A DNA stretch of 64,000 nt from Bacilli bacterium (GCA_017477255.1 JAFUXB010000002.1:182474-246473); one strand, 5' to 3'. Shown: positions 10,701 through 55,329, numbered from the stretch's first letter. Translations and numbers: made by a program. The notes: generated from the sequence alone by a model not told the origin.

Positions 10701-11140
10701 TCTTTCCACATTGATTTAATGTAAGTTTCAAGTGTTTCCTGATTATTAACACTGTCAATATTATTTTTATCTGTTGGCAAAATTAAAGTAACGCCTTGTT
10801 TAATTTCACAATTATCTTTTATTTTATATGTAACGGAATCTACAGAAATTTTATTATTTACTGAATGATAATTTTGTTTTTTTGGTGGTATTGTAACAAC
10901 AATATCACCACTATTAGCACTTTTTAAAGCTCCTTCAATAGTTGGAAAATATATTTTGTTAGATCCAGCAATATAAGCTACAGGCTCCTGAACGCTGCTT
11001 GTATATGTTTCATTAGTACTATTAGCTGTATCATTTTGATTATCTCCAGCATTCCAACTAGCATAAGAAACTTTAGGCATTAATCCTAAAGAAATAAATG
11101 CAAACATAAAAAATGCTAAAAGTTTTTTAAACCACTTCAT
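7763..11140 (-). CDS. giant secreted multidomain protein 1 (ASW-type SipW-cognate-like signal peptide; Big_2; C-terminal Hint/BIL autoprocessing domain)
   Basis: 1125 aa. N-terminus MKWFKKLLAFFMFAFISLGLMPKVSYASWNAGDN. Big_2 block IQLKANLIDVEKAYNKDVIWSSSNTSIATVDETGKVTGVNLGQVVITATS. Hint block A CVTGNTLVTMADGSYKAIKDVKLGELV. The conserved C-terminal tail is shared with 20554..24099. Start overlaps the stop of 11140..11757 (TAATG). RBS AAGGAG. Confidence 0.85.
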   Translation of the reverse strand: MKWFKKLLAFFMFAFISLGLMPKVSYASWNAGDNQNDTANSTNETYTSSVQEPVAYIAGSNKIYFPTIEGALKSANSGDIVVTIPPKKQNYHSVNNKISVDSVTYKIKDNCEIKQGVTLILPTDKNNIDSVNNQETLETYIKSMWKDSRNLGSTDKDAINHSTNYLRTTVEIESGKTLINNGTLVISGYLYSGTNQNSSLISYTGFSYSRFLLKHGAAIIQNSSTAITHCYGYIEEDVKNNNSYIDFANGTVYMPLVVCDYRGFSVASGMEEANNTYGVPPFNQIEFRNIFCTSYFRYNAKLYGCSNVYVYQTGIPIIGTIDEVIANNDSLIISNGNAALVKLTNSTYSYLEAKYDKDKKIMNLKFYGGFSLNTFSFKIKISGVEKTLSTANGFFPVSYKMNISLLRNSNQSGRATFSTLNQKIKLLPEASLAVSNNVDLNGSELTVYSTFIDNSSGERPTSKWSCGAHYPVKNNANCIVEDGGKITMQKIGGNVYCNDSANIIYSSSDIVESNEPWNQDVRSAPFVIKDYLIIREQLSISSLEKINSKKILIGMNTFFNSNDFPNPNKPKLNVINNGEQWQINGVQKVLHVDSVTNAQLELLNNIYNVNVFKGNNNVFGTSSRYAYRSYINNASNVVFCVINSLPSISSNNNGINEFDVQSITVESTTGKLDNGKDPLYINHSIQLKANLIDVEKAYNKDVIWSSSNTSIATVDETGKVTGVNLGQVVITATSSYHSEVFGTYNTEVIPDDSLVGVTSVWITSSTNKSSKTVVGTSSEHDGVSGITVAQNWSYHEEVTSTDTTITYSLKWEPSNGQISQVQWTFYSPTGEREYMVDYSGTKVANKTTIDDDGSRSTKIHFDGRTNQKPDACVLRCKVTDINNTEYSCDFNIMHNSGVCVTGNTLVTMADGSYKAIKDVKLGELVKTWSFKEGAFVNRPIIWYESGTMQNADVITVVFDDGSKVEAIWKQSFFDAELLDYVTIDSSNYSSFIGKKLLSDIGTSTIGYKRVVDAYVENKDTEYYEIDTMYDYQYLANNILTVEPTLHEHVWFEVTPEFKYDPIKMEQDLEKYGPLDYNLVKDLVTYDQYLWWGGEYLAVPIGKGYFTLDYLIEVIKQFINDNYEVA

Positions 11141-11757
11141 TATGCATTCTCCTTAGGGGTAAATGTAATATTAAAATTAGCAGAGGCTAAATTAGGAAAA
11201 CTTGATAAAGATCCAGTCCATTTTAAATTTAGACTAAAATCAAAGCTAAAATCAGCATCCGTATTTGTACATGTAATAACAAATGATGTTGTAATTGCTT
11301 CTCCATCTACTGGATCAGTATCATTAACGCTAAAATTTGTACTAGTTAATGACATTGAGCTGGATGAAAAACCATTAGGATTTAATCCATTTGGTAAAGC
11401 AGTTGATAAACTAACATCTAATTTGAAAGATTTTGTGTTTCTATAGCTTGTAAAGCATGATTTTGCATTCGCTGTATTAACTAAGCATGTGCCAGTTAAA
11501 TCAACGTTATCAGCGTAAATTCCATCATTAACAAAGCCATATCCAGTTGCATATTCAAAATTTCCTAATGAAGAAATTGTAATTACATCAAGAGCTTCGC
11601 CAGTTCCTCCTGTAATTACATCTCCAACACTTAAATCAACAGTCATATTATTAGTTGCCTGTGTAGCTACTGCCCACGTTGAAAAACCAAGTCCTACTAA
11701 GCTAATAATAGAAACTGGACATAAAACAACAAGTAACTTTCTTCCTATCTTTTTCAT
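11140..11757 (-). CDS. TasA/camelysin-like secreted protein 1 with SipW-cognate-type signal peptide
   Basis: 205 aa. N-terminus MKKIGRKLLVVLCPVSIISLVGLGFSTWAVATQ aligns to the B. subtilis TasA signal region (LALVGGGTWAAFND). The mature part starts TVDLSVG, compare TasA SGTLDLS. Translationally coupled to the giant gene. Confidence 0.6.
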   Translation of the reverse strand: MKKIGRKLLVVLCPVSIISLVGLGFSTWAVATQATNNMTVDLSVGDVITGGTGEALDVITISSLGNFEYATGYGFVNDGIYADNVDLTGTCLVNTANAKSCFTSYRNTKSFKLDVSLSTALPNGLNPNGFSSSSMSLTSTNFSVNDTDPVDGEAITTSFVITCTNTDADFSFDFSLNLKWTGSLSSFPNLASANFNITFTPKENA

Positions 11758-15788: not shown

Positions 15789-18416
15789 TTAGAATAGTGG
15801 ATTTTTCCATATATCAATTGGATCTAAAACTACTGGATCAATGCCATTAATTATAAACCAACTATAATATGAGCTAGGACTTGACCCTCCATTATATTTA
15901 CCAGCACTAGCAAAATCGACAAGTCTAACAAAATTTCCATTATAAGGAACATCAATATAAGCTAAACAGTTTATAGTGTTTCCATTTTGTACTTCTAATT
16001 TTTCAAGATTTGATGCATTTAATACTATATTTTTTGAAAATAAAACTTGAGGACAATATTTATTTAAATAATATTCATCTAATGTAAATAAAATTGGTCC
16101 ATAATATAAGGATGCATAGCCTGATTGAGAACGTTCTCCTAACCAAGTTGAAAAATGTAAATCTAAATTAAGTTCGATTTCATCTCCATTTTTCCATACT
16201 TTATCTATTTCATAATATTCATTAAATGTAGCACTATGAGTTTTAGAATCATATTTAACAATTGACTCAAAACTCCATGATGGAATTCTTAATTTTAATT
16301 TAAATGGAGTTGGTTTTTCTAAACCTTCTATAGTTATTTTAATATTTCCGTTTAATGGATAAGACGTTACTTCTTTTATAGTAACACTAGCGCCATTTAC
16401 ACTAGTTTTAATAGTAGAATTACCATAATAATTTAAATATAAAGAAGGTCCATCAGTTAAGCATGCCCATTCAACAATTTGCCCAATTCCACGTGCAAAA
16501 TTTGCTTGGCAACAATTCATATCAGGTGAACCTGAATTAAATTGGAATGATATATCTTGTTGTGAACTTACTCTTCTTCCATCATATCCTCCAGATAATC
16601 CTCTAATACCATTCATAGGAGTATTATAAGAACAATATTTATCGTCATCTAATTGTGCACCTAATATTCCATTAAAATAACTTCTTTCAAGTTCATCTAA
16701 TACTTCTACTTTTTTAGAATATTTATAAAATTCATTAGTAAAAGCACACCAAGCAATTGTACAACAAGTTTCAATTACTCCATCTTTATAAGGATCACCA
16801 ATTGCTCCTTCATTTGTAGTAAATCCACCTGTATTATGGATATCTGTAGATTGAATATCGTACCAAATTTGTTCTAAAACGTTGTAATATTCTTCGTTTT
16901 TAGTTTCTTCAAATAAAATACCTAAAGTCATAATCATGTGTAAAACTTCCCATCTAGCACTAGATGAACGATAGAAATTTCCACCTCTAAGAGCAGTTTT
17001 ATACCATCCACTTTGATCTTGACAATCCTGCATTATTATTCTTTCTGCTTCATTTAAATATTTTTCTTCTTTATTAACTTGATACATTAAAGCATAAGCA
17101 TGAGCTATTGCTCTATTTGTTTCAAATCCACCTTTTACTAAATAACTTCTATCTTTAAAAGTTTCATAGATTGCATCAAGACATTTTTTAGAAATAGTTA
17201 AAGCTTTTTCATTATTTGTTAATTTATACCACTCTAAAAGTCCTACAACTGCGTGATATTGATTCCATAAATCCCAGTTAGCTGAACCTATTGAATATCT
17301 AGATTGACCTTTAAATACACCTAAATATCCATCTTCTCCTTGAGCTTCTTCTAACTCATTAATAATTTCAGTTGCGGCATTAAATAATTCTTCATCTTTA
17401 GTTGCTTTATAAGAAAAACTAATTCCAGTTAATAGTTTTCCTACAAATTCTCCATACCGTGCTAATCCAGAAGGTTGTTCCATAGGATCATCTATACTTC
17501 TTTCTCTTAATAAATTAATATCCCAAATAACTTTATAAGTGTCACTAGTTCCCGTGTTTATTGGTAAATCATTTCCAGCAACACTACCAACAATTGCAAA
17601 ATCAGCTAATCTAAATGTTTTATTTAATGAAGTTGATGATCCTTTTATTGCTATTTGAAATTGAGCAATACATGAAGAATCTATAATTCTATTTCCACCT
17701 TCACACCAATAACATTCATAATAATCTTTATTAAAAGGTAAAGCTACATATCCTTCAAAATTAGCAGGAATAGAAACAAATCCGCCTTCACTAATACTTG
17801 CTTTTATAGCTTCACCATTACTTTTATATAAATTAACTTCTTTTCCATCGATTAATTTATATGATTCTCTTCCAACACTATTATCTTCAAAGCAAAGTCT
17901 AAGACCAGTTGTAGCTCCTATTTCACTATTATCAACATATACCCAAAGTTCTTTAATCCCTTGCCAACTAGTAATAGCATTAATATCGTTAACAAATCTA
18001 AAATCTCTATCTCCAAAACTAGTTGGAAGTGATTTTAATTTAAAACCAATATAGTTTTTATCATTCTTTTTAACTACATCAATATCATAATATCCATCAA
18101 CACCAAAGTAGTCTTGACCTAATACTTCACTAAGTGAAGATGTATTACTATTTTCATTTGCTTTTTTTATTTGAGTAATAATATTTGGGTTATTTTTGTA
18201 GGCACTTTTTTGCCAATATTTAATATTATTTTTAAAGTTTTTACCTAAAAACCCTTTTAAATCCAGTTCTTTTATATAATTTTTCAAAACACCAATCTCA
18301 CTTTCTTCATAATCAGTTTTGCTTGTATTTTCTTCAGTTTTATTACTTTTACAAGCATAAGTAAAAACTAATGAACCAATTAATAATAAAGCTGGTACAT
18401 TCTTTTTCTTTTTCAT
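15789..18416 (-). CDS. lipoprotein glycoside hydrolase, GH127/DUF1680-like (beta-L-arabinofuranosidase-like)
   Basis: 875 aa. Lipobox LVFTYAC. The E-x-C motif (IETCCTIAWC) and the CC motif (DMNCCQANFARG) lie about 85 aa apart, as in the Zn site of GH127 HypBA1 (Glu338/Cys340/Cys417/Cys418). The WDLWNQYH block is typical of an (alpha/alpha)6 barrel. Confidence 0.5.
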   Translation of the reverse strand: MKKKKNVPALLLIGSLVFTYACKSNKTEENTSKTDYEESEIGVLKNYIKELDLKGFLGKNFKNNIKYWQKSAYKNNPNIITQIKKANENSNTSSLSEVLGQDYFGVDGYYDIDVVKKNDKNYIGFKLKSLPTSFGDRDFRFVNDINAITSWQGIKELWVYVDNSEIGATTGLRLCFEDNSVGRESYKLIDGKEVNLYKSNGEAIKASISEGGFVSIPANFEGYVALPFNKDYYECYWCEGGNRIIDSSCIAQFQIAIKGSSTSLNKTFRLADFAIVGSVAGNDLPINTGTSDTYKVIWDINLLRERSIDDPMEQPSGLARYGEFVGKLLTGISFSYKATKDEELFNAATEIINELEEAQGEDGYLGVFKGQSRYSIGSANWDLWNQYHAVVGLLEWYKLTNNEKALTISKKCLDAIYETFKDRSYLVKGGFETNRAIAHAYALMYQVNKEEKYLNEAERIIMQDCQDQSGWYKTALRGGNFYRSSSARWEVLHMIMTLGILFEETKNEEYYNVLEQIWYDIQSTDIHNTGGFTTNEGAIGDPYKDGVIETCCTIAWCAFTNEFYKYSKKVEVLDELERSYFNGILGAQLDDDKYCSYNTPMNGIRGLSGGYDGRRVSSQQDISFQFNSGSPDMNCCQANFARGIGQIVEWACLTDGPSLYLNYYGNSTIKTSVNGASVTIKEVTSYPLNGNIKITIEGLEKPTPFKLKLRIPSWSFESIVKYDSKTHSATFNEYYEIDKVWKNGDEIELNLDLHFSTWLGERSQSGYASLYYGPILFTLDEYYLNKYCPQVLFSKNIVLNASNLEKLEVQNGNTINCLAYIDVPYNGNFVRLVDFASAGKYNGGSSPSSYYSWFIINGIDPVVLDPIDIWKNPLF

Positions 18417-20553: not shown

Positions 20554-23500
20554 TTATCTTGCTTGACCGGTTTTAAATAAATTAGCAACGTATTTCATTA
20601 CATTAATAATATGTTCTTTAGTAGTAATTCCTTTTTGAACTACTATATTGCAATATTTACCATTAATCTTTTCAAAGAAGTCTAAAGACATATAATCTTT
20701 CCATTCTTCATATGAATAAAGACCATATTTATTAATATCTTCTTCCATTAATTTTTCATCATATTTATATGAATTATCCATTTCAAAATAGTTACATGTT
20801 ATATCAACACATGTTTCAGTAATTGATAACACGTTATCAGTAACGCAGTTAACGTTATAATCAGTTAATATTGAATATGCATGACAATATTCTTCACTTA
20901 CTTCAATGTCTACAATTTTCTTAATTCTAATAGATCCATTATTTTCACAAACTACTTCTCTATTTATGAAACTGTTATAGCTATTTCTATTGATAGATTC
21001 GTATTTTTTAGTGTCATTCATTAATACACCATGAGCATTAATTATTTCAAAATTAGAACCATCATCAAATATAACATTAATCTTTGTATTATAGTCATTA
21101 CCATGATCAATTAATGCTAATATATTACTGTATTCAAACTTACCTTCGAAATGATTAAATGTTAAAACTTTATCTTCTTTAATTAAATCTTTAGCTTTCT
21201 TTAAACCATTTAATGTATTAATTAATGTGTCTTCTGAGAAACAACCTCCACTGTTTTTTGATGCATTTGCCACAGTAATGGTAGCATTTCCTGTACCAGA
21301 TACTGTATATGGGCTTGCATTGCCAGTCAAATTCGTGACTGCGATATTTCCTGCTGTATAGTCACTTTCTGCACTTACTTTAATTGTTATTACATCATTA
21401 ACATTAATCGACTGACTAACATTTTCTGTGCTTGATGCTGCAATCGTTGTATCATTAACGATTATAGTATTACCACGCTTAATACTATATGTAGCTGTTT
21501 CGTTACTACCAACATTAATTGTTAAATTATAAGAGATTGGCGTTTGTTCTCCAACAACAGTAATCGACTGGCCCCGAGAAGTTGATAAACAAACACCTGT
21601 TTGACCAGTTTTTAAAGTATGTCCATCTAAAGCTCCGCCAGTTACTTGCCATACCATTTCATAACCAGTAGGTAATGTAATTCCATAATTTGCTGCATCT
21701 GGAACAGTAAAGATTGCATCTTTATTTAAATATCTAATAGTTTGTACTAAATTATTGCCTGCAATCCCGATTGTTATTTCGTTTTTGTTAAGCCAATTTG
21801 CATACAGCTCACAAGAACCTGTAATTTGTGAATTGCTAGTATATTTATTATTAAACGAAGAATCTAAATACCAACCATCAAAATATTTTCCATATGATGT
21901 ATTGCTATTTTTGCCACTTAAATCAGGAACAACTAATTTATCAACATTAACACTTAGAATATCTTCTGAAGAGATGCAAGTGCATCCTTCATCTGTATTA
22001 TCATTTACATAAGTTATCGTGAAGGTCTCAGTATCAGCAGGATACCATCTGCCATATAAATTCAAATTATATGGTGAAGATAAATATGCAAAAATATTAG
22101 AATTTATCTGAGTAATTTTTGTTTGATATAATGAATCAATATACCAACCATCAAAAATTAATGAATTATGTTTTGCAGGATATAAATTTAAATTTGATTC
22201 AACATTAAACTGTGTAGGATTTCTTGAATCATTGCTTTGTCCACTTATTTGATTACCTTCAAAATCGACGTTAAAATTATACGAAATTGAGTAATTGATT
22301 GGTGACCATTTTGCATATAAAACTACACTACTATAAACTACATTAGAAAGCGCACTAATTGTACAATTTTCATCTAAAAACCATCCATCAAAATTGTAAT
22401 GTTCTCGTACAGGAGTATTCGCAATGTCATCGTTATTTATTGTGTATCCTCCATTTCCTATTGTTATAGTTTTTGGGCTAAAAGTCGTCGATGAACCATT
22501 GCAATCATACGATATAGTTCCAGCATTAGAAAACCGTCCATAATTGCTCTCTGTATCTACATATGAAAAATATGTGCCTGGTCCAACATTCTCAAAAACA
22601 TCACTGATTAATCCATTTTTTAACAATTTTAATTTTAATGATCCGTTTATAGTTGTATATGTTACACTTGTAAAAATAGTGCTGCCACTGTGGTTTAAAT
22701 GTTCATAAGATGTTATAGAAGTATTTGTAGCTGTTGTTTGAGCCCCTTCATTTGTTGAAATTACCAAGCCTGCTAATTTTTGAGCTGACAAAACTCCATT
22801 ATTAATCAAAATAGGTTCACTAGCTGTGTTAGGATACGCAGTGTGTGAATCAGTACTTAGATCTTTATAATTTTCATAACTTATTAAATCATCTACATTT
22901 AAAGTCGCAGTTTCGTCAATAAACACTCTACAACCTTTCATTAATTTTAATTTGTTTGAACATGTTATTGTTCCATTAAAAAAATATAGATGGAATGAAT
23001 AAGAAAGTGAAAATCTAAACGATGATGTATCTAAAGAAGTTCCTGCGACATTTAAAGTCAAAGCGTTAATTTTACAGTTTCCTCTTACCCTTATATCCAT
23101 AAAATTTAAATATCTATTACTATAATTTGAAGAATTATTATTTGCATAATTATATTTAAAATCAATAATTGCACCACTAGACATTTGAAATAGATGTGAA
23201 GATGAATTTCCTATAATTTTTATATCCTTTGCACTATGTGAATCACTACTAGCATAAAGCCAGGTATCAACAGTCAACGATGCACCATATTGAATATTAA
23301 CTAGAGGCCTCACATTACAAATCTCATACTCATTAAAAAATATTACATTTTTAGATGACTTATCACTGTTTAATCCATATGTAACTGAACCGCCTCGAAA
23401 ATCGTGAATGATAAAAGGAGCATTTAAAATAGAACCGGATTCAAGTATAATTTTTGGCCAAGTAGTTCTATCTGCCACTTCATCATAATCACCCTGATGT

Positions 23501-24099
23501 TTTGCATATTCTGTAATGTAGCCATAAACAGTTAATTTCGATCCGTTCTTGCAAAGTACTTGGGAATTATCTTTTAATGTTAATTGTGCATAATTACCAT
23601 TAGTAGCACCCCCATACAATCCTGCTCCAGCACCTGCTCCAATAGAACCACCTACAATCATTGTCCCATAATTAGTTATTTTGACCCCATCATCAAGTGT
23701 AACTTTTAATTTCATATAGGTGGCATCATCTTGTTCTTTAAAAACGTTACTAGATGTAGGAGAATTTATATATGTTTCATTTTCATAAGGCAAAATTAAA
23801 CTAACACCACTATTAATAGTAAAACTATTTTTAACAATTGGATTACTTCCAGGAATGACATAAACCGTTTTATTTCCAACATTGTTTGCTGAATTTATAG
23901 CGGCTTCTAGAGATGAAAAATAAGTAGAATCATAATAAGCAACCGGATTTGATTCTTGTGCGCTTACCTTATTACTACTTACTTCATTAATTTTTCTTAT
24001 TTCATCTGAAACCCATGAAGCGCTACCAGTTTTAATTGTAGAAAAAATACACCCAAAAAAAATTAAAAAACCAATAAATATGTTCTTAAATTTTTTCAT
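20554..24099 (-). CDS. giant secreted multidomain protein 2 (paralog of 7763..11140; Gly-rich/beta-helix region, three Flg_new repeats, C-terminal Hint/BIL domain)
   Basis: 1181 aa. N-terminus MKKFKNIFIGFLIFFGCIFSTIKTGSASWVSDE. The N-terminal block PVAYYDSTYFSSLEAAINSANNVG is homologous to giant 1. Flg_new repeats YNFDGWFLDENC...LYAKW, LIFDGWYIDS...LYGRWY and KYFDGWYLDSS...LYANW. Hint block A GGCFSEDTLINTLNGLKKAKDLIKEDKVLTF. ATGA overlap with 24096..24761. Confidence 0.85.
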   Translation of the reverse strand: MKKFKNIFIGFLIFFGCIFSTIKTGSASWVSDEIRKINEVSSNKVSAQESNPVAYYDSTYFSSLEAAINSANNVGNKTVYVIPGSNPIVKNSFTINSGVSLILPYENETYINSPTSSNVFKEQDDATYMKLKVTLDDGVKITNYGTMIVGGSIGAGAGAGLYGGATNGNYAQLTLKDNSQVLCKNGSKLTVYGYITEYAKHQGDYDEVADRTTWPKIILESGSILNAPFIIHDFRGGSVTYGLNSDKSSKNVIFFNEYEICNVRPLVNIQYGASLTVDTWLYASSDSHSAKDIKIIGNSSSHLFQMSSGAIIDFKYNYANNNSSNYSNRYLNFMDIRVRGNCKINALTLNVAGTSLDTSSFRFSLSYSFHLYFFNGTITCSNKLKLMKGCRVFIDETATLNVDDLISYENYKDLSTDSHTAYPNTASEPILINNGVLSAQKLAGLVISTNEGAQTTATNTSITSYEHLNHSGSTIFTSVTYTTINGSLKLKLLKNGLISDVFENVGPGTYFSYVDTESNYGRFSNAGTISYDCNGSSTTFSPKTITIGNGGYTINNDDIANTPVREHYNFDGWFLDENCTISALSNVVYSSVVLYAKWSPINYSISYNFNVDFEGNQISGQSNDSRNPTQFNVESNLNLYPAKHNSLIFDGWYIDSLYQTKITQINSNIFAYLSSPYNLNLYGRWYPADTETFTITYVNDNTDEGCTCISSEDILSVNVDKLVVPDLSGKNSNTSYGKYFDGWYLDSSFNNKYTSNSQITGSCELYANWLNKNEITIGIAGNNLVQTIRYLNKDAIFTVPDAANYGITLPTGYEMVWQVTGGALDGHTLKTGQTGVCLSTSRGQSITVVGEQTPISYNLTINVGSNETATYSIKRGNTIIVNDTTIAASSTENVSQSINVNDVITIKVSAESDYTAGNIAVTNLTGNASPYTVSGTGNATITVANASKNSGGCFSEDTLINTLNGLKKAKDLIKEDKVLTFNHFEGKFEYSNILALIDHGNDYNTKINVIFDDGSNFEIINAHGVLMNDTKKYESINRNSYNSFINREVVCENNGSIRIKKIVDIEVSEEYCHAYSILTDYNVNCVTDNVLSITETCVDITCNYFEMDNSYKYDEKLMEEDINKYGLYSYEEWKDYMSLDFFEKINGKYCNIVVQKGITTKEHIINVMKYVANLFKTGQAR

Positions 24100-24761
24100 A
24101 TAACAGATTCCGCTCCTAAAGTTACTTTAAATCCGACTCCGTTTGAAACATATTTATATGTATTATAAAATGTCGAAAAATTTACAGGTGAAAGAGCAGC
24201 TAAAATAGAAAAATTAACATTTTCATCAGTCAAATCAGAAACACTTGTGTTATATGAAATTATTATTTCAGATCCATTTTCAACAGTTATACCATCATTT
24301 ATTTGTGTCAAATTATGTAATGCGCTGATATTCGTTTTGTTTGCATTAACAGTAACAATATTATTTAGATTCAAAGTATTATTGCCATCAAATCCATTGA
24401 TTTTCAAAATAATCCTCATTTCATTTGATAATAATAAAGATTTGATTCCTCTTTTGGCTAAATTTAAATTAATTGATGAATTTACGGTTATATACCCACC
24501 ATAAGGGTCAATTATCGAACCTTCTTGAGAATACGTTCCATCACTCATTTCAAAGCCATATTGAGACATCTTAAAAGTTTGTAATGTTACTGATCCAAAT
24601 GCATCAATATTATCTGCAGTTTCGACATTACCAACTGATAAGTTTACTGAAATATTAGTACTTACTTGCTTAGCAACAGCCCATGTTGAAAAACCTAACC
24701 CGATTAAGCTAACCATTGAAACGGGAAGCAAAATAGCCAATAACTTCTTATTTATCTTCAT
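24096..24761 (-). CDS. TasA/camelysin-like secreted protein 2 with SipW-cognate-type signal peptide
   Basis: 221 aa. N-terminus MKINKKLLAILLPVSMVSLIGLGFSTWAVAKQVSTNISVNLSVGNV is a paralog of 11140..11757. RBS GGTAAGAG. Confidence 0.6.
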   Translation of the reverse strand: MKINKKLLAILLPVSMVSLIGLGFSTWAVAKQVSTNISVNLSVGNVETADNIDAFGSVTLQTFKMSQYGFEMSDGTYSQEGSIIDPYGGYITVNSSINLNLAKRGIKSLLLSNEMRIILKINGFDGNNTLNLNNIVTVNANKTNISALHNLTQINDGITVENGSEIIISYNTSVSDLTDENVNFSILAALSPVNFSTFYNTYKYVSNGVGFKVTLGAESVI

Positions 24762-24890: not shown

Positions 24891-24916
24891 AAAAAGTTAG
24901 CTATAGGAGCTAACTT
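24891..24916 (-). terminator. rho-independent terminator of 24958..26055
   Basis: aaaaAAGTTAGCtataggaGCTAACTT: 8-bp stem with an A-run on the plus strand. Same palindrome family as 26084-26111. Confidence 0.65.
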
Positions 24917-24957
24917 TCTACTAAAATATCAAATTTGCACACCTTCTTATTAAAAAT

Positions 24958-29105: not shown

Positions 29106-31535
29106 CTAACTCCTTCCTCTAACAATTAAATCTTCTCTTGATGGTGATTCTTTATATAAATATGGTTTATCAGTATATGTACCATTTGTAATAAAATTAA
29201 ATGCATTAAATCCTGCTGCGACTGATACACATTTTTGTAATATATCAATATATCTATTTCCTGAATTGCCATTCATTGAGTTTTCCATAATATTTACATG
29301 TAAATCTTCGCCAAAATCGATATTATTTAATGATGAACTATCTACAGTAGATAAATTAATTCCTCCACCATAATAAGCAACTTCACTATTTAAATATGAT
29401 TTTCCTTCTTCTTTGTAGATATATTTTTTATCTGCTGCTAAGCTAGAAACTAACTTTTTCATTGGGAAATAATAATCAATTGGGATTCGATCCATTTCAA
29501 AATCATCTCCAAGTACTGATTTAGCAAATTCTCCAATTCTTTCTTCAATAAGACATGAAGCATCTAAATCTTCAATATCTTTAAAATCATAAAATTTAGT
29601 ATCACCAACTAAATTTAATTTTGATGGTCTCATTGTTGCGCCTACGTTGTTAGGGAGTGCAAAATCTAGACCAAATCTATTAAATGTAGCTTTGATGTAA
29701 CTTGGCATACCATTATATAAGAAACATCCATTAAAATAAGTATCAAAAGCTATAGCAAATATTCCAGATTGATTAAAATAAGTGTCTTTTACTGTAATTT
29801 CTTGACCAAAATCTACTTCATCTCCTTTTAAATAAGGATTATCAAGTTGAGATTGGAAAGTATTAAGCATACTAATAGTTTCTTCGCTATCTCCTTGACC
29901 TTGAATAAATTCATTAAATATTAAAGAATCAGCACTAATTCCTTCTTTTTTATCTAAGAAATCTCCAAGTCTTCCATCAAAAGTTTCACCATCAAAACTA
30001 TAATTTACATATTGTCTTAAATCAGTTTCTTTATATTCGTTACATCCAATTTTAAGTAAAAATTCTCTACTATTTTGAAGTAATGAATTTTCAAGTAAGA
30101 AATTATCACTACTATAAACTCTCACTGCGTTTCTTGTGTTTTTAACTGTAACATTTTTTAAAGTTACATCTTTTGCATTAACATCAATTCCTGTTCCAAC
30201 AAATTCTAAATTATAAATATTATTAGCGTAGTTATCACAGTTAATTACATTTAAATCATTAACCGTTACTCCTTCTTTATCAATATAAATTAAAGAATTA
30301 TCTTGTCCAAAAGCTTTAACAATTGGAGCTTCAAAATCTCCAATTGATACAAATGTTAAAGGTCCTGTAAATAAATCACCCTTTGTACTATCAGGAGTTA
30401 ATATTCCAGTATATTGATTAATTGAACCATTTATTGGGTAAGTTAAATTTCTACCATTAACAGTAAATCCATTTCCATAAAAATCTTTTTGGATATGAAT
30501 TCCACTGATTACTTCGTTTTTATTTGTATTTTCACCATAAATTTGTTTAATAAATTTATCGTTATATGTAGTTTTAAAACGATATACTTCATTATTAAAA
30601 CTAAATGAATTTTTATTTAAATTACCAAAAAGTCTTGTTGATTTATTCTTTAATTCATCAGTTCTATTTCCGTTATTATAAACATAAGTGTTTTCTAAAG
30701 ATTCAAGATTTACTTGTAAAACACCTATTTCTCCACTTCCTCTATTTTTATTAGTAATAGCAAGTAAGTCATTATATGAATAAACATTACATCCATCTTT
30801 AACTATATTTAAATCAAGATCTTTTTTAAGTTCAATTTCATTAGTTAATTGTGCACTAAATGAAATTTTAGCTTCACCACTATTTTTAATAGTTAAAGCA
30901 CTATTTTTTTCATCATAATTTAATGTAGTTGATGTAATATTCTTCACTTTTAAAGGTAGTCCTTCTGGTAAAGTTTTAACTTTTAAATTGATATTTGCAT
31001 TATTTTTCCTGTAACTACTAGGATCGGTATAAACTAAATCATATTGACCAAAATATCTTTTTCCTGTAATTGATTCACTACTTGAAGGATATTCGAAGTT
31101 GATAATAATTGTTCCTTCATTATAAATTTCGGCATTAAATGTAGCGCTGGCTGTTCCTTTTTTATTTCTACATCCAACAGTTACAGTTCCTTCATTTTTA
31201 GCAAATAAATACCATTTTTCTTCTTCTTTTTCGACTACTTCAGCAATGTTTGTGTCTCCATTAATAAACCAAATAAGTTCATTATCACTAGCTAGTTCTC
31301 TACTTCTATCATAAGTTAAATTACATCTAAGTTCAGTATAAGGATTATCATTCATTTCATTTAACATTTGAAATCCTGTATATTCATCAAAAATACCATC
31401 AAAATCTATTTTTTGAATATCATTAGGTAATTCTCTTATTCTTTGTTTAATAAGGGCAAAACTTAAAAGACTCACAATAAATGGAGCAATAAGTAAGATA
31501 TAAAGTGTTTTTTTAGATCCGGATTTTGCCATCAT
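29106..31535 (-). CDS. membrane-anchored surface protein with Big_2 domain and right-handed parallel beta-helix repeats
   Basis: 809 aa. N-terminal TM helix. Big_2 block IWFINGDTNIAEVVEKEEEKWYLFAKNEGTVTVGCRN. Beta-helix repeats NVTVKNTRNAVRVYSSDNFLLENSLLQNSREF. Confidence 0.8.
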   Translation of the reverse strand: MMAKSGSKKTLYILLIAPFIVSLLSFALIKQRIRELPNDIQKIDFDGIFDEYTGFQMLNEMNDNPYTELRCNLTYDRSRELASDNELIWFINGDTNIAEVVEKEEEKWYLFAKNEGTVTVGCRNKKGTASATFNAEIYNEGTIIINFEYPSSSESITGKRYFGQYDLVYTDPSSYRKNNANINLKVKTLPEGLPLKVKNITSTTLNYDEKNSALTIKNSGEAKISFSAQLTNEIELKKDLDLNIVKDGCNVYSYNDLLAITNKNRGSGEIGVLQVNLESLENTYVYNNGNRTDELKNKSTRLFGNLNKNSFSFNNEVYRFKTTYNDKFIKQIYGENTNKNEVISGIHIQKDFYGNGFTVNGRNLTYPINGSINQYTGILTPDSTKGDLFTGPLTFVSIGDFEAPIVKAFGQDNSLIYIDKEGVTVNDLNVINCDNYANNIYNLEFVGTGIDVNAKDVTLKNVTVKNTRNAVRVYSSDNFLLENSLLQNSREFLLKIGCNEYKETDLRQYVNYSFDGETFDGRLGDFLDKKEGISADSLIFNEFIQGQGDSEETISMLNTFQSQLDNPYLKGDEVDFGQEITVKDTYFNQSGIFAIAFDTYFNGCFLYNGMPSYIKATFNRFGLDFALPNNVGATMRPSKLNLVGDTKFYDFKDIEDLDASCLIEERIGEFAKSVLGDDFEMDRIPIDYYFPMKKLVSSLAADKKYIYKEEGKSYLNSEVAYYGGGINLSTVDSSSLNNIDFGEDLHVNIMENSMNGNSGNRYIDILQKCVSVAAGFNAFNFITNGTYTDKPYLYKESPSREDLIVRGRS

Positions 31536-33154
31536 TAAATCCTCATTTTGATAAAGCTATTATTAATTATCTTTTTAAAAGGTAAAATAAGAGCAACGTT
31601 TGTAATTACATAAAGTAAAATTACAATAATATACATTAAGGCTTTTGAAACTTGAGCATACATAAATAAGAATATAAGTCCAAAAGTAATAAGAGGTAAA
31701 ACAATTGATAAAACTGTCGATAAAAACTCAATATTTGATTTTTTATTTTCATTTAATTTAGCGAGATCTATATATACTCCTGCTACACTAAGTGATAAAA
31801 GAAGCATTAATCCAGCTAGTAACGAAATAAAGAAAGCAAGTACTGAAATTTGTTTTCCTATAGCAAGTACTAAAAGAGTTAAAATTAAACTAAATGAAGA
31901 AAAAGCAAATGGAATAATCATTTTACAAATAGTTTGTTTTAATGGGCTAATTGGAATATATTTAACTATTTGAATTGCTTTTTGTTCTCTAGAATAAGCA
32001 TCCATTGTAGAACTTGCAATAATTGAAGAAAATAAAAGAATTAAAGTAATATTAAGTGCATTTATAAATTCACCATAATAATGTAAAAACATTTGTTGGT
32101 TTGTATAAAATAAAGTATTAAGTGAATTAATAACAACAAATGCTAAAAATGGTTGCATTATAAGTAAAGAAGTATAACTAAATACATAATTTGAATTTCT
32201 AAAAATAAGTACAAATTCTTTTTTTAAGAGGGTTTTAGTAGGGTTTTGAAGTAAAATCTTACTAGATTTCATAGTTTTAGATTCATTAGAACTAAATTCA
32301 CCTTTTAAGAAATTAGTATATGATTCAGTTGCTATAAAATATCCTAAAACGAGCGCTATAACACTACTTCCTACACTAATCATTATGTCTTGTAAAACAT
32401 TTACTTTTCCTAGTCCTAAATCCATAAGTTGATAAGTAGGAACAAAGAATTTAGTAGCTTTATGAAGCTTTTCTACAAATGCTCCACTAATTAAAGTGTC
32501 AAGTTTAGCATCATTTACAAGTGTCATAAATAAATTAAGTACGTAGTTATATAAAATACACAAAGTAATAACTAAAATACTTCCTAAAGCAATTTGTAAA
32601 ATTGGTTTAGGTTTAATAAAATTGTAAGCTTTATTATATAAAGGCAAGATAATAAGCGTTAAACCAGTTGATATAAAACTAGAAAAGAATGGGTATAACA
32701 CACTAAAAACATAAAATTTAGTAGTAATTCCTGATTCAAATCCTTGTTTAATTCCAAATGTAAAAAGTAATGGAATAGTAATAATTGCACTAGTTAAAAC
32801 GTTATTTAAATAAGTAAATAAAGCTTTTGAAAATATAATTTCATCATTATTAATTGGAAGATGTAACATAATTGATGAATCAATTCGTTTATAAAAGATT
32901 TCTCGAGCTCTTAAAGTCGTAGAAATCATAGAAACAATTAACATGACAAATAATATTAAAATTAAGAAATCATAAGATCCAAACGAAGAAAATTCTTTTA
33001 ATTTTGGTTCAAGTTTAGAAAAAATAAATACTTCTAAAAAAACTATAAGTCCATAGACTAAAACTCGACCAACCCATCTTAAAATGGTTTTGACTTTACT
33101 TGATTCATAAGTCTGAGACTCTTTAAATTCTTTATGAAGTAATTCAAGTAACAT
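31535..33154 (-). CDS. polytopic ABC-type permease (partner of the REC-ABC ATPase)
   Basis: 539 aa with at least 10 hydrophobic helices. Start overlaps the stop of 33154..34317, and the stop overlaps the start of 29106..31535. Confidence 0.7.
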   Translation of the reverse strand: MLLELLHKEFKESQTYESSKVKTILRWVGRVLVYGLIVFLEVFIFSKLEPKLKEFSSFGSYDFLILILFVMLIVSMISTTLRAREIFYKRIDSSIMLHLPINNDEIIFSKALFTYLNNVLTSAIITIPLLFTFGIKQGFESGITTKFYVFSVLYPFFSSFISTGLTLIILPLYNKAYNFIKPKPILQIALGSILVITLCILYNYVLNLFMTLVNDAKLDTLISGAFVEKLHKATKFFVPTYQLMDLGLGKVNVLQDIMISVGSSVIALVLGYFIATESYTNFLKGEFSSNESKTMKSSKILLQNPTKTLLKKEFVLIFRNSNYVFSYTSLLIMQPFLAFVVINSLNTLFYTNQQMFLHYYGEFINALNITLILLFSSIIASSTMDAYSREQKAIQIVKYIPISPLKQTICKMIIPFAFSSFSLILTLLVLAIGKQISVLAFFISLLAGLMLLLSLSVAGVYIDLAKLNENKKSNIEFLSTVLSIVLPLITFGLIFLFMYAQVSKALMYIIVILLYVITNVALILPFKKIINNSFIKMRI

Positions 33155-34317
33155 TAAAGATTTTCTACTCCTTCTCCATAAACTTTAAAGAAAACACGTT
33201 TAAGGTCTTTTCTTTTATAAGGTTCTTTTTTAAAATCAAGTTCAACTGCTATTTTTCCTTCATTAACAATTGCAACTTTATCACAAATTGCACTAACTAG
33301 TTCAATATTGTGACTTGTAATAAATATTGTATTTCCAGCTTTTGCATAGTCTCTAAGCATTCTAAGTAAAACTTCATAAACCATGATATCTAGACCTACC
33401 GTAGGTTCATCTAAAACCCATAATTTAGGATTATGAATTAAAGAAGCCATTAAGCATACTTTTTGCTTCATACCATGTGAATATTCACTTATTTTTCTAT
33501 TTAAATCAGCTTCTGGTAAATCAAATTTACGTTTTAAGAAGTCATAGTTAGCATCAAATGAGCTTTGAATCATTCCATAACTACTTCCAATAAATTCTAA
33601 AAATTCTTTACCAGTCATAAGTTCATATGCTGTTGGTTCACTTGGGACATATCCAAATAATTTTTTAGTAGCAACTGGATCATCTTTAATTGATTGTCCA
33701 AATATTTTAATATCTCCGCTATTAAAATCTTTTAGTCCTACGATAGCATCAATTGTAGTTGATTTACCGACACCGTTTTTTCCAACAAAGCCATATATCT
33801 CACCTTTTTTAACATATAAAGAGATACCTTTAAGAACTTCTTTTTTACCATAAGATTTATAAACATCATCGATTTCAAGAGCGATTTCATCGAGCTTTTT
33901 AGTAATATGATTTGCTCTATAATGTTCAATAATTCTCATGATTCTAGCTAAAATTACTTCGCTAGATTCAAAAGGTTTTTTAATAAAATCCATTGCGCCA
34001 AGTTTTAAACACTCGACTTCTTTTTCTTTATCACTAGTTAAAACAATTACAGGGATTTCACTAATTTCTGGATTTTCTTTTTTAAACTTTAAAAAAGCAA
34101 TTCCATCCATTTTTGGCATGATTAAATCAAGTAAAACAAGGTCAATATCTTCAGCTTCTTTTTTTAAGATAGCAAGGCCTTCATCGCCATCTTTTGCAAA
34201 AAGACATTCACACTCATCTTTAATGATGTTAGCTAAAATCTCGCGATTGATTTCTTCATCATCAATTATGAGTACTTTACTAGCTTTTTCCTTTAATAAA
34301 CTTGAATCATTAGCCAT
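33154..34317 (-). CDS. response-regulator receiver (REC) domain fused to an ABC transporter ATP-binding domain
   Basis: 387 aa. REC residues KVLIIDDEEI, DLVLLDLIMPKMDG, VIVLTSDKE and KLGAMDFIKKPF. ABC Walker A GKNGVGKST, degenerate signature YSHGMKQKV, Walker B LWVLDEPTVGLD and H-loop FITSHNIE. Confidence 0.8.
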   Translation of the reverse strand: MANDSSLLKEKASKVLIIDDEEINREILANIIKDECECLFAKDGDEGLAILKKEAEDIDLVLLDLIMPKMDGIAFLKFKKENPEISEIPVIVLTSDKEKEVECLKLGAMDFIKKPFESSEVILARIMRIIEHYRANHITKKLDEIALEIDDVYKSYGKKEVLKGISLYVKKGEIYGFVGKNGVGKSTTIDAIVGLKDFNSGDIKIFGQSIKDDPVATKKLFGYVPSEPTAYELMTGKEFLEFIGSSYGMIQSSFDANYDFLKRKFDLPEADLNRKISEYSHGMKQKVCLMASLIHNPKLWVLDEPTVGLDIMVYEVLLRMLRDYAKAGNTIFITSHNIELVSAICDKVAIVNEGKIAVELDFKKEPYKRKDLKRVFFKVYGEGVENL

Positions 34318-34751: not shown

Positions 34752-36134
34752 TTATTTATCCTTTTTCGTTTCATCCCATAATTTTTTAATCCAAATATAC
34801 TTCTTCTTTCCGATTTTGATTTCATTAAATGAACCATTACAATCAAGACAAGTATATAAAGATGATTCACTATGCAATAAGTGAGTTTCCCCACAGAATG
34901 GACATTTATTAATTTCGTCGATATAAACTGGAATTAATATTCTAGTTGATTTAAAAATATTAAAAATTTCTAAATCACTATAAATTTCTTTTTCATAATT
35001 TAATTCACAAACATTATTAAAGTTTGGAGTTAAATTATTATTTGTAACGTAAATACATTCATCATATTCGTTTTCATTAAACTCTTTTTTATCTTCTAAA
35101 GCATAGACAAATCTAATTAAAATACGATGAGATACGTTATTTAATTTAATATTTAATGTAAGTGATTTATCATCTTCATTAATTTTTAAAGAGTATGCAA
35201 ATTTATCTAATTTAAACTTAATTAAAACTCTACTTGTTACTAAATCTTTTTCATTTAAGCTTAGATCTACAAGGTTTTCGAGTTTAAATTCATCATTTTC
35301 ACTTATAACATGAAGTAATCTAATAACTGCGTAATTGAAGAATAATTTATCAAAATCTAGTTCTTCTTTTACTCCAAATAAGTTTTCTTTATAAAACCTA
35401 TAAACTTTGTTATATCTTCTATCATGAAGTATAGTGTTAGTCATATTAATTGGAAGATGAAAAGATGTATCTTCTAATTCTTTATAAAATTTATGGAGTT
35501 TTAATCTTTTTGCTTTTTTATGGATTTCTTTTAATGCATTAAAATTTACATTAGTTAATCCTTCATTAAAAACATATTTAGATATTGCTTCATTTTCATT
35601 AAATAAATTCTCATAAATTGATAATCTAGATAAACTAGCTTCGTTAGTTTCATAATATGTTTTTAATGAATTAGATGGAGTTAAACTTAAATCTTTATAA
35701 GTTTTAAGCATCGTTAATATTTTTTTAAAAACATAAATAATGAATCTATTTTCATAATTATTAATTGTATCGATATATTCGACACTATAAACTTGTTCTG
35801 GAGTCATTTTTCCATTTTTATCCTTCCATAAAGCAGGATCTTTCATAGTTTTTGTAAATGATTCTTCAGTTAATATTGAAACAAGTTCACTACGAGTAAT
35901 AATTTCTTCAGTAGTAGTTTGAATATAAGGATAATTCATAATATTAATTAAAATATCTAAAATATTATTTAATTCAGTTATGAATTTTTCTAGTTCTACA
36001 TTATCTTCACTAGCAAGAGGTAATTTTTTAGTACCTTTAAAAATATTAGTTGTAGACAAAGTTAAATCTAAAGATTCATTAAATCTAGAAACTAATTCAT
36101 TATTAAAATTAACTAAAAAACTATGATTTGCCAT
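34752..36134 (-). CDS. uncharacterised protein with C-terminal zinc ribbon; candidate partner (McrC-position) of the McrB-like ATPase
   Basis: 460 aa. C-terminus CPFCGETHLLHSESSLYTCLDCNGS. Sits directly downstream of the McrB-like gene, 2 nt apart. I could not identify a clear PD-(D/E)xK motif. Confidence 0.6.
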   Translation of the reverse strand: MANHSFLVNFNNELVSRFNESLDLTLSTTNIFKGTKKLPLASEDNVELEKFITELNNILDILINIMNYPYIQTTTEEIITRSELVSILTEESFTKTMKDPALWKDKNGKMTPEQVYSVEYIDTINNYENRFIIYVFKKILTMLKTYKDLSLTPSNSLKTYYETNEASLSRLSIYENLFNENEAISKYVFNEGLTNVNFNALKEIHKKAKRLKLHKFYKELEDTSFHLPINMTNTILHDRRYNKVYRFYKENLFGVKEELDFDKLFFNYAVIRLLHVISENDEFKLENLVDLSLNEKDLVTSRVLIKFKLDKFAYSLKINEDDKSLTLNIKLNNVSHRILIRFVYALEDKKEFNENEYDECIYVTNNNLTPNFNNVCELNYEKEIYSDLEIFNIFKSTRILIPVYIDEINKCPFCGETHLLHSESSLYTCLDCNGSFNEIKIGKKKYIWIKKLWDETKKDK

Positions 36135-36135
36135 A

Positions 36136-45884: not shown

Positions 45885-47621
45885 TTATTTTGTTATAGCT
45901 GAAATTTCGTTCACGAACTTGTTAGTTCTATCTTTAATCATAGTCTTACACCAATCAATTCTGCCTTGCCATTCATTCATAAAATTGTTACCAGCACCCC
46001 ATCTTGTTTGGTGATCAAACTTATAAAGATAAACTTCATTAATCATTTTTTCTAAAATACCATTTATATTTTTATAATTCAAAATGTCTTCTTTAAGTTC
46101 TACTGCTCTATTATATAAAGCGTTTTTAAATGATTTATTTTGCATTAATTTATTAAATAATGGGAAGATGAAAAAGTTATTGGCTTGGCTTTTGCTTAAA
46201 TAATTTTTGTCTTCTCTAAATGCAAAATCACAATCATGCATGCAGAATCTCCATTTTCCATCTGCATATTTGTTATTTTCATCAATTTTAGTTGTTCTCC
46301 ACATTTTTAAGTTATTGTTATTACCAATAAAGTCCCAGTTAGCCGCACAATGATGAATAATTATGATATCTATAAACGAATCAATATCAATATATTGATT
46401 ACAGAATTTTTCATATATAGATTGATTTGAAAAATTAAGTGAATTAATTAAAGCAACAAAAGAATCTAATAATTGTCTAGCTTCAGTTTCATCGCTAGCA
46501 TCGTCAATATTCCAGTTTCCTTTATATTCAACAATTGCTACATCATCTTTATTTACACCATAATTTTGAGCAAAATAAGCTTGTTTATAATGCTCTCTTA
46601 AAGCATACATTCCCCAATATTCACCATTAATATAAGTAATACAAGGTCTATATGCGCTTGTTGAAACATTAGTTTCTTTTACTACTTCTTGAATTAAAGC
46701 ATCATTACATCCTGTATAATCTTCAAAACAGTTTCCACCATTATGAAGTCTAAGTCTAGTGAAATTTGTTAATTCTTTATTATCTAAACCAATAGCTTTT
46801 CTATCACCAAAAATATGAGCTTTTATCGGATCATTTTTCTTTCCAAGTTCATCTTTATTAAAGTTTAAATTTAAAGTTCTTTGAGGATAACCAGTTGACC
46901 AGTTCCCACCTAATTTAACTTGTCCATTAACTCTAAAATATTCATCATATTTTAAATCTATATATTCAATTTCACATCTTTTCTTATATTCATCTCTAAT
47001 AGCATTATAGAAACCTTCTGGTCCATACATATCGTCATAGCTCATTGTTAAACTAACAATAGGCATATTTGCATAATATTTAAGTCCATTTTCTTCAATA
47101 AAATAAGTTAATGAACGATTAAGTACTTCTTTTTGAGTTTCTTTATGAACTAATTTAACCTTTAAAACAGCTTGCTTTGGAAATAATTTATAATTTTTAG
47201 GATTTTGAATATTAGAAATGTAATTATTTGAAACACATTTTCCTAAATTGTCCCATGCTAAAATTGCATCAACACTAGTTGTAATTGGATAATCCATTAA
47301 AGATTCAACTTTAGGTTTTCTAATTTTAATTTTTTCACCTTGATATTTAAAATATGAATCAATTCCAGTTCCATAATTAACATCAAAAGTATAATAAATA
47401 TCTATAACTGGATTATTATTAGTAAATTTTATTTCGATTGCATCTTCATAAATGCCTGGAGCCTTATCAACAGTAATATTGCTATAAATAGCATAATCTG
47501 TTTGATCTTTTACTTTAGTAACGCTTTGTGGTTCAGGTACAATTTCATTATAAAAATGATTTGAACTGCAAGCAGTTAACAAAATAAATGGAGTTAAGCA
47601 TAATAAAAGGCGCTTTTTCAT
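45885..47621 (-). CDS. CotH-family (atypical kinase fold) lipoprotein
   Basis: 578 aa. Lipobox LLTACSS. VKLGGNWSTGYPQRTLNLNF...RLRLHNGGNCFEDYTGCNDAL...ITYINGEYWGMYALREHY matches the CotH pattern lrGnsS..pKks..LkL..ggnD.s..rd.l...yv.lyiNGeywGlY.l.E. Confidence 0.55.
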   Translation of the reverse strand: MKKRLLLCLTPFILLTACSSNHFYNEIVPEPQSVTKVKDQTDYAIYSNITVDKAPGIYEDAIEIKFTNNNPVIDIYYTFDVNYGTGIDSYFKYQGEKIKIRKPKVESLMDYPITTSVDAILAWDNLGKCVSNNYISNIQNPKNYKLFPKQAVLKVKLVHKETQKEVLNRSLTYFIEENGLKYYANMPIVSLTMSYDDMYGPEGFYNAIRDEYKKRCEIEYIDLKYDEYFRVNGQVKLGGNWSTGYPQRTLNLNFNKDELGKKNDPIKAHIFGDRKAIGLDNKELTNFTRLRLHNGGNCFEDYTGCNDALIQEVVKETNVSTSAYRPCITYINGEYWGMYALREHYKQAYFAQNYGVNKDDVAIVEYKGNWNIDDASDETEARQLLDSFVALINSLNFSNQSIYEKFCNQYIDIDSFIDIIIIHHCAANWDFIGNNNNLKMWRTTKIDENNKYADGKWRFCMHDCDFAFREDKNYLSKSQANNFFIFPLFNKLMQNKSFKNALYNRAVELKEDILNYKNINGILEKMINEVYLYKFDHQTRWGAGNNFMNEWQGRIDWCKTMIKDRTNKFVNEISAITK

Positions 47622-53638: not shown

Positions 53639-53641
53639 AAA

Positions 53642-55327: not shown

Positions 55328-55329
55328 AG

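Follow-up and report, generated by a model that had tools for sequence, protein, structure and literature searches.

The 64,000-nucleotide (nt) stretch analysed here, from the genome of a gut or rumen Bacilli bacterium (GCA_017477255.1, contig JAFUXB010000002.1, positions 182474-246473; hereafter the window) encodes a 387-residue protein in which a receiver (REC) domain of two-component signalling is joined directly to the nucleotide-binding domain (NBD) of a transporter belonging to the ATP-binding cassette (ABC) type. We consider it fairly likely, from sequence comparisons, that this REC-ABC protein is a response regulator with an NBD as its output, i.e. the ATPase of an ABC-2-type exporter gated by an aspartyl phosphate, and that the exporter is probably switched by a signalling kinase. 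The gene has a central place within a conserved cluster that comprises about ten genes for envelope proteins, most orthologs of which encode an ATPase that carries no receiver.

Architecture and conservation of the REC-ABC protein

The window has a G+C content of about 26%, gives clean reading frames with translation table 11 and holds nearly all its genes on the minus strand. The REC-ABC gene (33154-34317, minus strand) is a single unbroken frame with an AGGAG Shine-Dalgarno sequence 7 nt ahead of its ATG at 34317. A first-pass annotation, made from the DNA alone, had described a complete REC domain fused to a full ABC domain, and both are recognised far above the Pfam cut-offs: Response_reg (PF00072) scores 82.3 bits against a cut-off of 30.2, and ABC_tran (PF00005) matches amino acids (aa) 162-306 with 93.8 bits against a cut-off of 25 (E 1.8e-26). 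The overlapping start and stop codons described by the same annotation are also present. The stop codon of the REC-ABC gene and the start codon of the permease gene share the sequence TAATG at 33154, and base 31535 is common to the permease stop codon and the start codon of the gene for an 809-aa surface protein.

The annotation had pointed to a frameshift or sequencing error at the junction as the event that could have created the fusion artificially. In an origin of this kind, an ABC gene and a separate REC gene would have been run together. This would fit the finding that the nearest relatives of the ABC domain (about 80% identity) are free-standing 258-aa proteins, but four observations contradict it: (i) the frame is continuous across the junction, with neither a stop codon nor a frame change, (ii) the exact protein sequence (MBR1581711.1 at NCBI) stands in three contig records of different origin (NCBI, Logan and ENA), (iii) copies that are 98% identical and show synonymous differences were found in assemblies made independently, namely a Logan assembly in which the gene context is the same (L004) and a contig of a JGI metagenome (L090), and (iv) about 41 further protein clusters share the architecture. 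The probability of an assembly or frameshift artefact is thus negligible, and we rejected it. Between the window and L004 the gene differs at 12.5 synonymous and 7.5 non-synonymous positions, giving a non-synonymous to synonymous ratio (pN/pS) of 0.15 for the whole gene, 0.23 for the REC domain and 0.08 for the ABC remainder, all from small counts; the gene is under purifying selection.

Alignment to Escherichia coli CheY places CheY residues D12, D13, D57, T87, Y106, K109 and P110 on D19, D20, D64, T94, F111, K114 and P115 of the window protein. Every phospho-acceptor residue of the pocket that the annotation had read from the sequence (the acidic pair, the aspartate in LLDLIMP, the Thr/Ser and the lysine) is intact by this alignment, and D19, D20, D64, T94 and K114-P115 are invariant or conservatively replaced in 43/43 REC-bearing homologs. 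The domain is, judged by these residues and its Pfam score, a true member of the REC superfamily. In the 43 homologs, 36-49 residues, including a variable acidic stretch, separate the KKP[FY] motif of the REC domain from the [YH]K[SA]YG motif of the NBD. A few residues ahead of Tyr156, the linker runs into the first strand of the NBD; this tyrosine precedes the Walker A motif by 23 residues, and we take it, from this spacing and established ABC anatomy, to be the A-loop aromatic residue.

The NBD displays a Walker A motif (GKNGVGKST), a Q-loop (GYVPSEP), a signature (YSHGMKQKV, aa 279-287), a Walker B and D-loop region that reads LWVLDEPTVGLD (Walker B LWVLDEP, D-loop VGLD) and an H-loop (ITSHNI). 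The window protein has intact Walker A, Walker B (with the catalytic glutamate), D-loop and H-loop motifs, and all of them are conserved throughout a census of this protein and its 120 best homologs (n=121). What the NBD lacks is the canonical LSGGQ signature, replaced by YSHGM, and the Q-loop glutamine, replaced by Ser226. The annotation had called the signature degenerate and had taken it to hint at a regulatory rather than fully catalytic NBD. The census speaks against both suggestions, since YSHGM(K/Q)QK is invariant in 121/121 sequences, REC-bearing or REC-less, and we rejected the idea that the signature is a REC-linked trait of a regulatory NBD. YSHGM keeps the signature serine and the second glycine, so that its sole unusual residue is the histidine at the first glycine, which REC-less members have too; its methionine has a counterpart at the same position in the ABCA1 signature (SGGMQRK). 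ABCA1, together with ABCA3 and the Thermotoga maritima protein 1vpl, is among the closest solved NBD structures. The Q-loop (aa 222-228, nt 33634-33654; GYV(P/A)SEP in the family) departs from the ABC consensus more than the signature does: Ser226 aligns to the glutamine of both ABCA1 NBDs and is a serine in 121/121 members. Because both variants are invariant family-wide, they read as traits of the lineage and not as decay. By its motifs and its nearest structures the NBD can be classed as a conserved if somewhat non-canonical ATPase of the ABC-2/ABCA-like kind, none of whose peculiarities is tied to the REC domain and whose full catalytic competence we assume.

Occurrence of the receiver, kinase genes and a proposed model of gating

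The search of protein databases returned about 41 further clusters at 90% identity that combine REC and ABC and are 51-55% identical to the window protein (hereafter clade A). The nearest relatives of the window ABC domain (73-80% identity) are REC-less proteins of about 258 aa. In a tree of ABC domains, 100/100 bootstrap replicates recover clade A as monophyletic, and 100/100 also set it apart from the window protein by a split that has REC-less proteins on either side. The window NBD is nearer its REC-less sisters than clade A over its full length, and no recombination breakpoint was found within the ABC domain. The REC domains of all REC-ABC proteins nevertheless group together, with a bootstrap support of only 12%, and their sister group is formed by the REC domains of proteins of about 566 aa with a REC-GGDEF-EAL architecture from rumen Bacilli, to which identity reaches about 53-58%. 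The REC module has either moved between orthologous loci or been lost repeatedly.

These REC-GGDEF-EAL proteins, the REC domain and α5 linker of which are the closest relatives of those in REC-ABC, occur in rumen Bacilli and Lachnospiraceae (L006-L025, L093, L104, L109) and often follow an 846-aa hybrid HisKA kinase that carries two REC domains. Matches over query residues 15-176 or 15-198 in two scans of sequence collections, considered as candidates for further REC-ABC lineages, proved to be such proteins. A HMMER search of representative sequences with aa 1-215 was uninformative, as the best 150 matches were mostly multi-REC hybrid kinases and did not include the family of the query.

The family was compared locus by locus, in a set of 50 loci (the window and 49 fetched loci, two of them obtained by exact protein look-up and the others from a genome scan) and 42 further loci from look-ups and a metagenome scan, 92 in total. 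The ABC gene encodes a REC-less protein of about 250-280 aa in 79/92 loci. No separate REC gene is found in the fetched flanks of these loci, and there is no room for a REC remnant because the upstream gene ends 3 nt ahead of the ABC start. Since most loci thus do without a receiver in the ATPase or near it, REC is, as far as gene content tells, an optional regulatory add-on that is dispensable for the core function. REC-ABC fusions with an orthologous permease do occur in relatives, as the annotation had proposed to check, but most orthologs lack the receiver. Its remark that the arrangement is uncommon is supported, and only a minority of lineages have REC. In four clostridial loci (L060, L071, L072, L083) the ABC N-terminus carries, at the position of REC, a low-complexity extension of 100-130 aa rich in Ala, Arg and Gln. 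A gene for a 137-aa protein directly upstream of REC-ABC is present only in the window lineage (window, L004, L090) and may have arrived together with the REC module.

The cognate histidine kinase that the annotation had suggested looking for is not among the window ORFs (open reading frames) of at least 300 aa, and the window holds no second REC domain, but a kinase does adjoin the cluster in clade A. In all five clade-A loci with enough upstream flank (L003, L005, L085, L088, L091), a multi-transmembrane kinase of the PF06580 type with a HATPase_c domain and a 253-aa response regulator are encoded directly upstream on the same strand. An ORF resembling either of the kinase types tested was found in 0/79 REC-less loci. 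The arrangement is a good lead to a branched pathway in clade A, in which one kinase would serve both a transcriptional regulator and REC-ABC. The same succession of a kinase and two REC-containing proteins within one cluster could also mean that the receiver of REC-ABC is mainly a second phospho-acceptor, a sink or branch that tunes the transcriptional regulator beside the kinase and not transport. The window lineage, however, has the fusion with no adjacent kinase and regulator pair, and control of the ATPase is the simpler explanation for a receiver tethered to it covalently through a short linker. We regard the role of a phosphate sink as quite unlikely.

Several observations weigh against a phosphorylation-gated exporter. 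No histidine kinase domain is present in any ORF of at least 300 aa in the 64-kb window. The kinase association of clade A amounts to a single evolutionary event, and its kinase is of the PF06580 type whereas the neighbours of the closest REC relatives are HisKA hybrid kinases. The whole family has a serine for the Q-loop glutamine and a histidine for the first signature glycine. R322 is the only NBD residue specific to REC-bearing proteins, and there is no sign of a co-evolved surface for REC docking. Finally, a metagenome-assembled genome of rumen Bacilli keeps the fusion with a decayed REC domain (L027:5355-6503) that is unrecognised by Pfam and has lost the acidic pair and the lysine while the fused ABC domain is intact, which shows that the add-on can persist without phospho-chemistry.

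The decayed receiver, the lack of a kinase in the window, the absence of a REC-specific NBD surface and the clostridial extension, by which the N-terminus is seen to tolerate non-signalling add-ons, would all suit a receiver that works independently of phosphorylation, as a dimerisation, localisation or docking module of the ATPase inside the envelope machine. Atypical receiver domains play such roles in some pilus-assembly ATPases. Conservation of D19, D20, D64, T94 and K114 in 43/43 homologs would be unexpected for a pseudo-receiver without phospho-chemistry, and a kinase adjoins the cluster in clade A; we consider this explanation unlikely.

For the phosphorylation-gated exporter, we propose the following course of events. 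The output domain of the response regulator would be the ATPase subunit of an ABC-2-type exporter, and two copies of REC-ABC would dock on a single permease with 12 transmembrane (TM) segments; because one such permease needs two NBD copies, the complex would contain two REC domains. A flexible tether of about 12-25 acidic residues would connect each REC domain to the first NBD β-strand, beside Tyr156. A histidine kinase or acetyl phosphate would phosphorylate Asp64, which would alter the conformation, the dimerisation or the position of REC against the NBD. This change would either allow or block closure of the two NBDs, and ATP hydrolysis and export would thereby be switched post-translationally. 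The role of REC would be regulatory because, to judge from the REC-less orthologs, the exporter works without it. We favour a steric (tether) or dimerisation mechanism over a rigid helical relay, since the linker appears flexible and the NBD has no REC-specific residues. This proposal is in line with the kinship of the receiver with those of REC-GGDEF-EAL enzymes, members of a class whose enzymatic output is under REC control.

The conserved envelope gene cluster

The annotation had treated the ABC ATPase, the permease and the surface proteins as one unit. They do lie in one apparent operon, but the unit was incomplete, being the middle of a cluster of about ten genes (Table 1). The order of the cluster, namely small paralogs, SipW-like peptidase, McrB-like NTPase, McrC-like protein, ABC, permease, 809-aa protein and lipoprotein(s), often with a giant surface protein at the end, is fixed save in a few loci with a lipoprotein gene upstream of ABC. 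The permease and ABC genes are adjacent in 48/50 loci, and a lipoprotein gene is present in 34/50. Promoter-like and terminator-like sites, both consensus matches only, would delimit a 16.7-kb transcript (approximate length). The clusters come from the guts of humans, rabbits, birds and ruminants, and the record titles assign them to uncultured Bacilli (including "Mollicutes", Acholeplasmatales, Ca. Scatoplasma, Ca. Enterosoma and Ca. Onthovivens, the last three of which we take to be RF39-type) and to Clostridia (including Christensenella). The ABC pair is the centre of this multi-gene envelope cluster, and in the proposed model the exporter would be its conserved core.

Table 1. Features of the cluster in the window, listed in the direction of transcription, with the number of loci (of the set of 50) in which a component was found.
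Feature	Position (nt)	Strand	Basis or remark	Loci
Best sigma-70-like promoter match	41584..41613	-	consensus match only	
Two small secreted/membrane-anchored paralogs, 279 and 277 aa	39235..40910	-	unannotated family	
SipW/archaeal-type signal peptidase I-like protein, 406 aa	37978..39198	-	NCBIfam	44/50
604-aa protein, 4 N-terminal TM segments and McrB/AAA_5-like P-loop NTPase	36136..37950	-	Pfam, PADLOC	48/50
McrC-like (DUF2357) protein, 460 aa	34752..36134	-	CxxC...CxxC zinc ribbon	46/50
Zinc-ribbon and 2-TM (DUF4190-like) protein, 137 aa	34336..34749	-	between McrC-like gene and REC-ABC	
REC domain of REC-ABC	33952..34275	-	aa 15-122; Pfam Response_reg E 3.6e-23	
Phospho-acceptor Asp64 codon	34126-34128	-	CheY alignment	
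End of REC helix α5 and short acidic linker	33883..33951	-	aa 123-145	
ABC NBD (aa 146-387) and stop codon	33154..33882	-	Pfam ABC_tran, motifs	
Permease, 539 aa, 11-12 predicted TM segments	31535..33154	-	hydropathy: 11 segments	48/50
809-aa single-pass membrane protein	29106..31535	-	AlphaFold2, Foldseek	45/50
Putative lipoprotein, 380 aa	27961..29103	-	C-terminal Flg_new-like repeat	
Tandem lipoprotein paralog, 379 aa	26834..27973	-	31% identity, E 9e-42	
Terminator-like hairpin, 12-bp stem and T-run	24891..24919	-	consensus match only	

The window permease matches PF16949 weakly (16.5 bits), and its orthologs have PF09847 (12TM_1) on record, in some cases marked as weak. The best NCBIfam matches of the NBD are the ATPases DrrA (166.7 bits against a cut-off of 312), GldA (155.5 against 403) and those of lantibiotic protection (136.2 against 310); ATPases of phenol-soluble modulin (PSM) export match as well, the best-scoring models are all below cut-off, and no curated equivalog assignment was obtained for the window NBD. 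Taken with the two-component pair that adjoins the cluster in clade A, the DrrA, lantibiotic-protection and PSM-export matches could indicate an exporter that confers resistance to antimicrobial peptides, bacteriocins or drugs (of the DrrA, lantibiotic-immunity or Bce kind) under two-component control, its placement among surface genes being incidental. Bce modules combine a BceB permease of the FtsX type, which has a large extracellular loop, with an intramembrane-sensing BceS kinase and an OmpR-type regulator. The permease of the present cluster, in contrast, appears to be of the 12-TM ABC-2 type and has no FtsX match, the kinase of clade A is of the PF06580 type, the NCBIfam scores are far below the family cut-offs, and the ABC pair keeps the same cluster position in about 90 loci that represent two bacterial classes, its codons overlapping with those of the neighbours at either side. 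A resistance exporter is accordingly improbable.

Downstream of the permease, the 809-aa protein was modelled with AlphaFold2 (AF2) at a predicted local distance difference test score (pLDDT) of 87.6 and a predicted TM-score (pTM) of 0.90. The model has an N-terminal TM helix, tandem immunoglobulin (Ig)-like sandwiches and a large β-rich domain resembling a right-handed β-helix; Foldseek matched it to Ig, cadherin and S-layer tandems in the PDB and to viral proteins with BIG2 and right-handed β-helix/pectin-lyase folds in BFVD. Two homologs match Pfam Beta_helix (PF13229), and no Pfam Big_2 match was found in the 809-aa protein. The Big_2/β-helix surface protein of the annotation thus stands as a membrane-anchored protein with a β-helix-like domain but not as a Pfam Big_2 protein. 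Its two Flg_new lipoproteins fared similarly: they are tandem paralogs, both with lipobox-like N-termini, but Flg_new is sub-threshold in the window lipoprotein (18.5 bits) and on record for the orthologs.

The window also holds two paralogous gene pairs (20554-24761 and 7763-11757). Each consists of a gene for a 205-221-aa protein with an N-terminal signal-like motif (...GF[AS]xW[VA]), as in the small paralogs of the cluster, followed by one for a giant surface protein of 1125-1181 aa that contains repeats of the Flg_new or Big_2 type and ends in a Hint module (intein/hedgehog-like). Orthologous clusters, too, often end in a giant surface protein of this kind.

At the upstream end of the cluster, the 604-aa protein matches Pfam AAA_5 weakly and the PADLOC model PDC-M26A with E 2.7e-35. 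In the family of the 460-aa protein, PF09823 (DUF2357) is matched by 21/38 orthologs, and the zinc-ribbon cysteines C411, C414, C429 and C432 are invariant. A zinc ribbon was also all that searches for remote homology of the two proteins to solved structures returned, and a literature search on PF09847 and PDC-M26 yielded nothing relevant. A McrBC-like pair, as these two proteins may form (window 34752-37950, with orthologs in about 46/50 loci), is unusual in a non-defence envelope context. The PDC-M26A match, the McrC-like DUF2357 of the 460-aa orthologs and matches of the ABC protein to the mad3 and AriA models would be compatible with an anti-phage defence system built from a McrBC-like module and an ABC/AAA_21 ATPase. 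This is very improbable: transporter NBD models outscore the defence models (167 against 88 bits), the gene of the ATPase is coupled to that of a permease with probably 12 TM segments, the alignment summary of the McrC-like family shows no conserved nuclease motif, the cluster holds a signal peptidase, secreted proteins and lipoproteins, and its gene order is fixed across classes and not patchy.

The 406-aa protein matches TIGR02228 (E 5e-9) and SipW NF046067 (E 2e-6), in both cases below the cut-off. The small paralogs, of which there are 1-6 copies of 230-300 aa per locus, share a very strongly conserved N-terminal hydrophobic segment, KRKW..GG..LLTTGFATWVVG, and a C-terminal FxWGxFFGxxxP motif. 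Sixty members gave no Pfam match, a profile search gave no sequence match in the PDB, and an AF2 model with a pLDDT of 66.6 gave no significant fold match in Foldseek. TasA-like fibre subunits were considered and rejected, as none of these searches gave a significant match and TasA was not among the Foldseek matches. The cluster differs from the TasA/SipW operon in that its peptidase scores below the SipW cut-off and its small paralogs gave no significant match to the fold of TasA and camelysin.

With regard to the function of the whole, a doubtful possibility is that gut and rumen Bacillota possess, in the products of this cluster, an envelope machine not described before, devoted to filament assembly or to dedicated secretion. 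Its substrates would be subunits whose hydrophobic N-terminal segment is pilin-like and ultra-conserved, processed by the dedicated SipW-type peptidase. The ABC-2 motor would extract the subunits from the membrane or push them through it, with the membrane-anchored McrBC-like NTPase and the β-helix protein as partners, and the receiver acquired by the motor in some rumen lineages would let a two-component kinase switch the assembly directly. Such a receiver would represent a new class of response-regulator output.

Other genes of the window were noted in passing. Proteins of the CotH kinase family (578 aa), Lipase_3 type (854 aa) and GH127 β-L-arabinofuranosidase-like type (875 aa) are encoded on the flanks of the cluster (43057-47621 and 15789-18416). 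A second ABC ATPase (58721-61123; 800 aa, MalK-like, with ABC_tran and OB_MalK) has an ABC_tran match that spans 266 residues for a profile of 137 positions, implying an insertion of about 130 aa; two BPD_transp_1 permease genes stand before its gene, and four GH43 genes (51155-58718) come after it.

Relation to known systems and implications

Control of an exporter by phosphorylation of its cytoplasmic side is known from other ABC systems. The R region of CFTR is phosphorylated by protein kinase A (PKA). Rv1747 of Mycobacterium tuberculosis carries two N-terminal FHA domains and is activated via the Ser/Thr kinase PknF (PMC3138270). REC-ABC would resemble both in having a phosphorylation-reading module on the cytoplasmic side of an exporter NBD, in the post-translational control of a pump and, in clade A only, in a kinase encoded with or beside the transporter. 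It differs in that the module is a receiver, predicted to be itself phosphorylated on an aspartate, and sits on the separate NBD polypeptide of what is probably an ABC-2-type system; unlike Rv1747, the system involves no Ser/Thr kinase or FHA domain.

Response regulators with enzymatic or NTPase outputs include REC-GGDEF-EAL proteins, CheB and the REC-AAA+ proteins of the NtrC type. REC-ABC shares with these an N-terminal REC domain joined through helix α5 and a linker to a catalytic domain, and departs from them in that this domain is the NBD of an ABC transporter. TadZ/CpaE of Tad pili, in which an atypical receiver is fused to a P-loop ATPase of the MinD/ParA type, likewise place a receiver fold N-terminal to the ATPase of an envelope assembly machine. 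The TadZ receiver lacks phospho-acceptor chemistry, whereas the active site of REC-ABC is intact and its ATPase is an ABC NBD.

Among transporters, the NBD is nearest to those of DrrA, GldA and ABCA1, including the S-x-G-M signature, and would work with a polytopic permease that is probably of the ABC-2 kind; as in GldAFG of Bacteroidota gliding, where GldG follows GldAF, an accessory extracytoplasmic protein is encoded downstream. Scores far below the cut-offs, the apparent union of both permease halves in one 12-TM protein, the Q-loop serine and a different neighbourhood set it apart from DrrAB, GldAFG and the ABCA exporters. C-terminal ligand-binding regulatory domains occur on the importer NBDs of MalK, MetN (C2) and OpuA (CBS). 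There, too, an extra domain on the NBD controls closure, as is proposed for REC-ABC, the add-on of which is in contrast an N-terminal phospho-acceptor on an NBD of the exporter type. The literature covered by our search, census papers on response regulators included, nowhere describes an ABC NBD with a receiver fused to it, although absence there is not proof.

Nearly all two-component signalling works through transcription or through a small number of enzymatic outputs. If the proposed reading is true, the receiver of REC-ABC, wired directly to an ABC motor, would add a fast post-translational switch to an export machine. It would also offer a natural and genetically simple model for the gating of NBD closure, for which the approximately 80 REC-less orthologous loci are built-in controls. 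Much of the interest of the finding lies, apart from REC, in the uncharacterised envelope cluster of about ten genes that it has brought to light.

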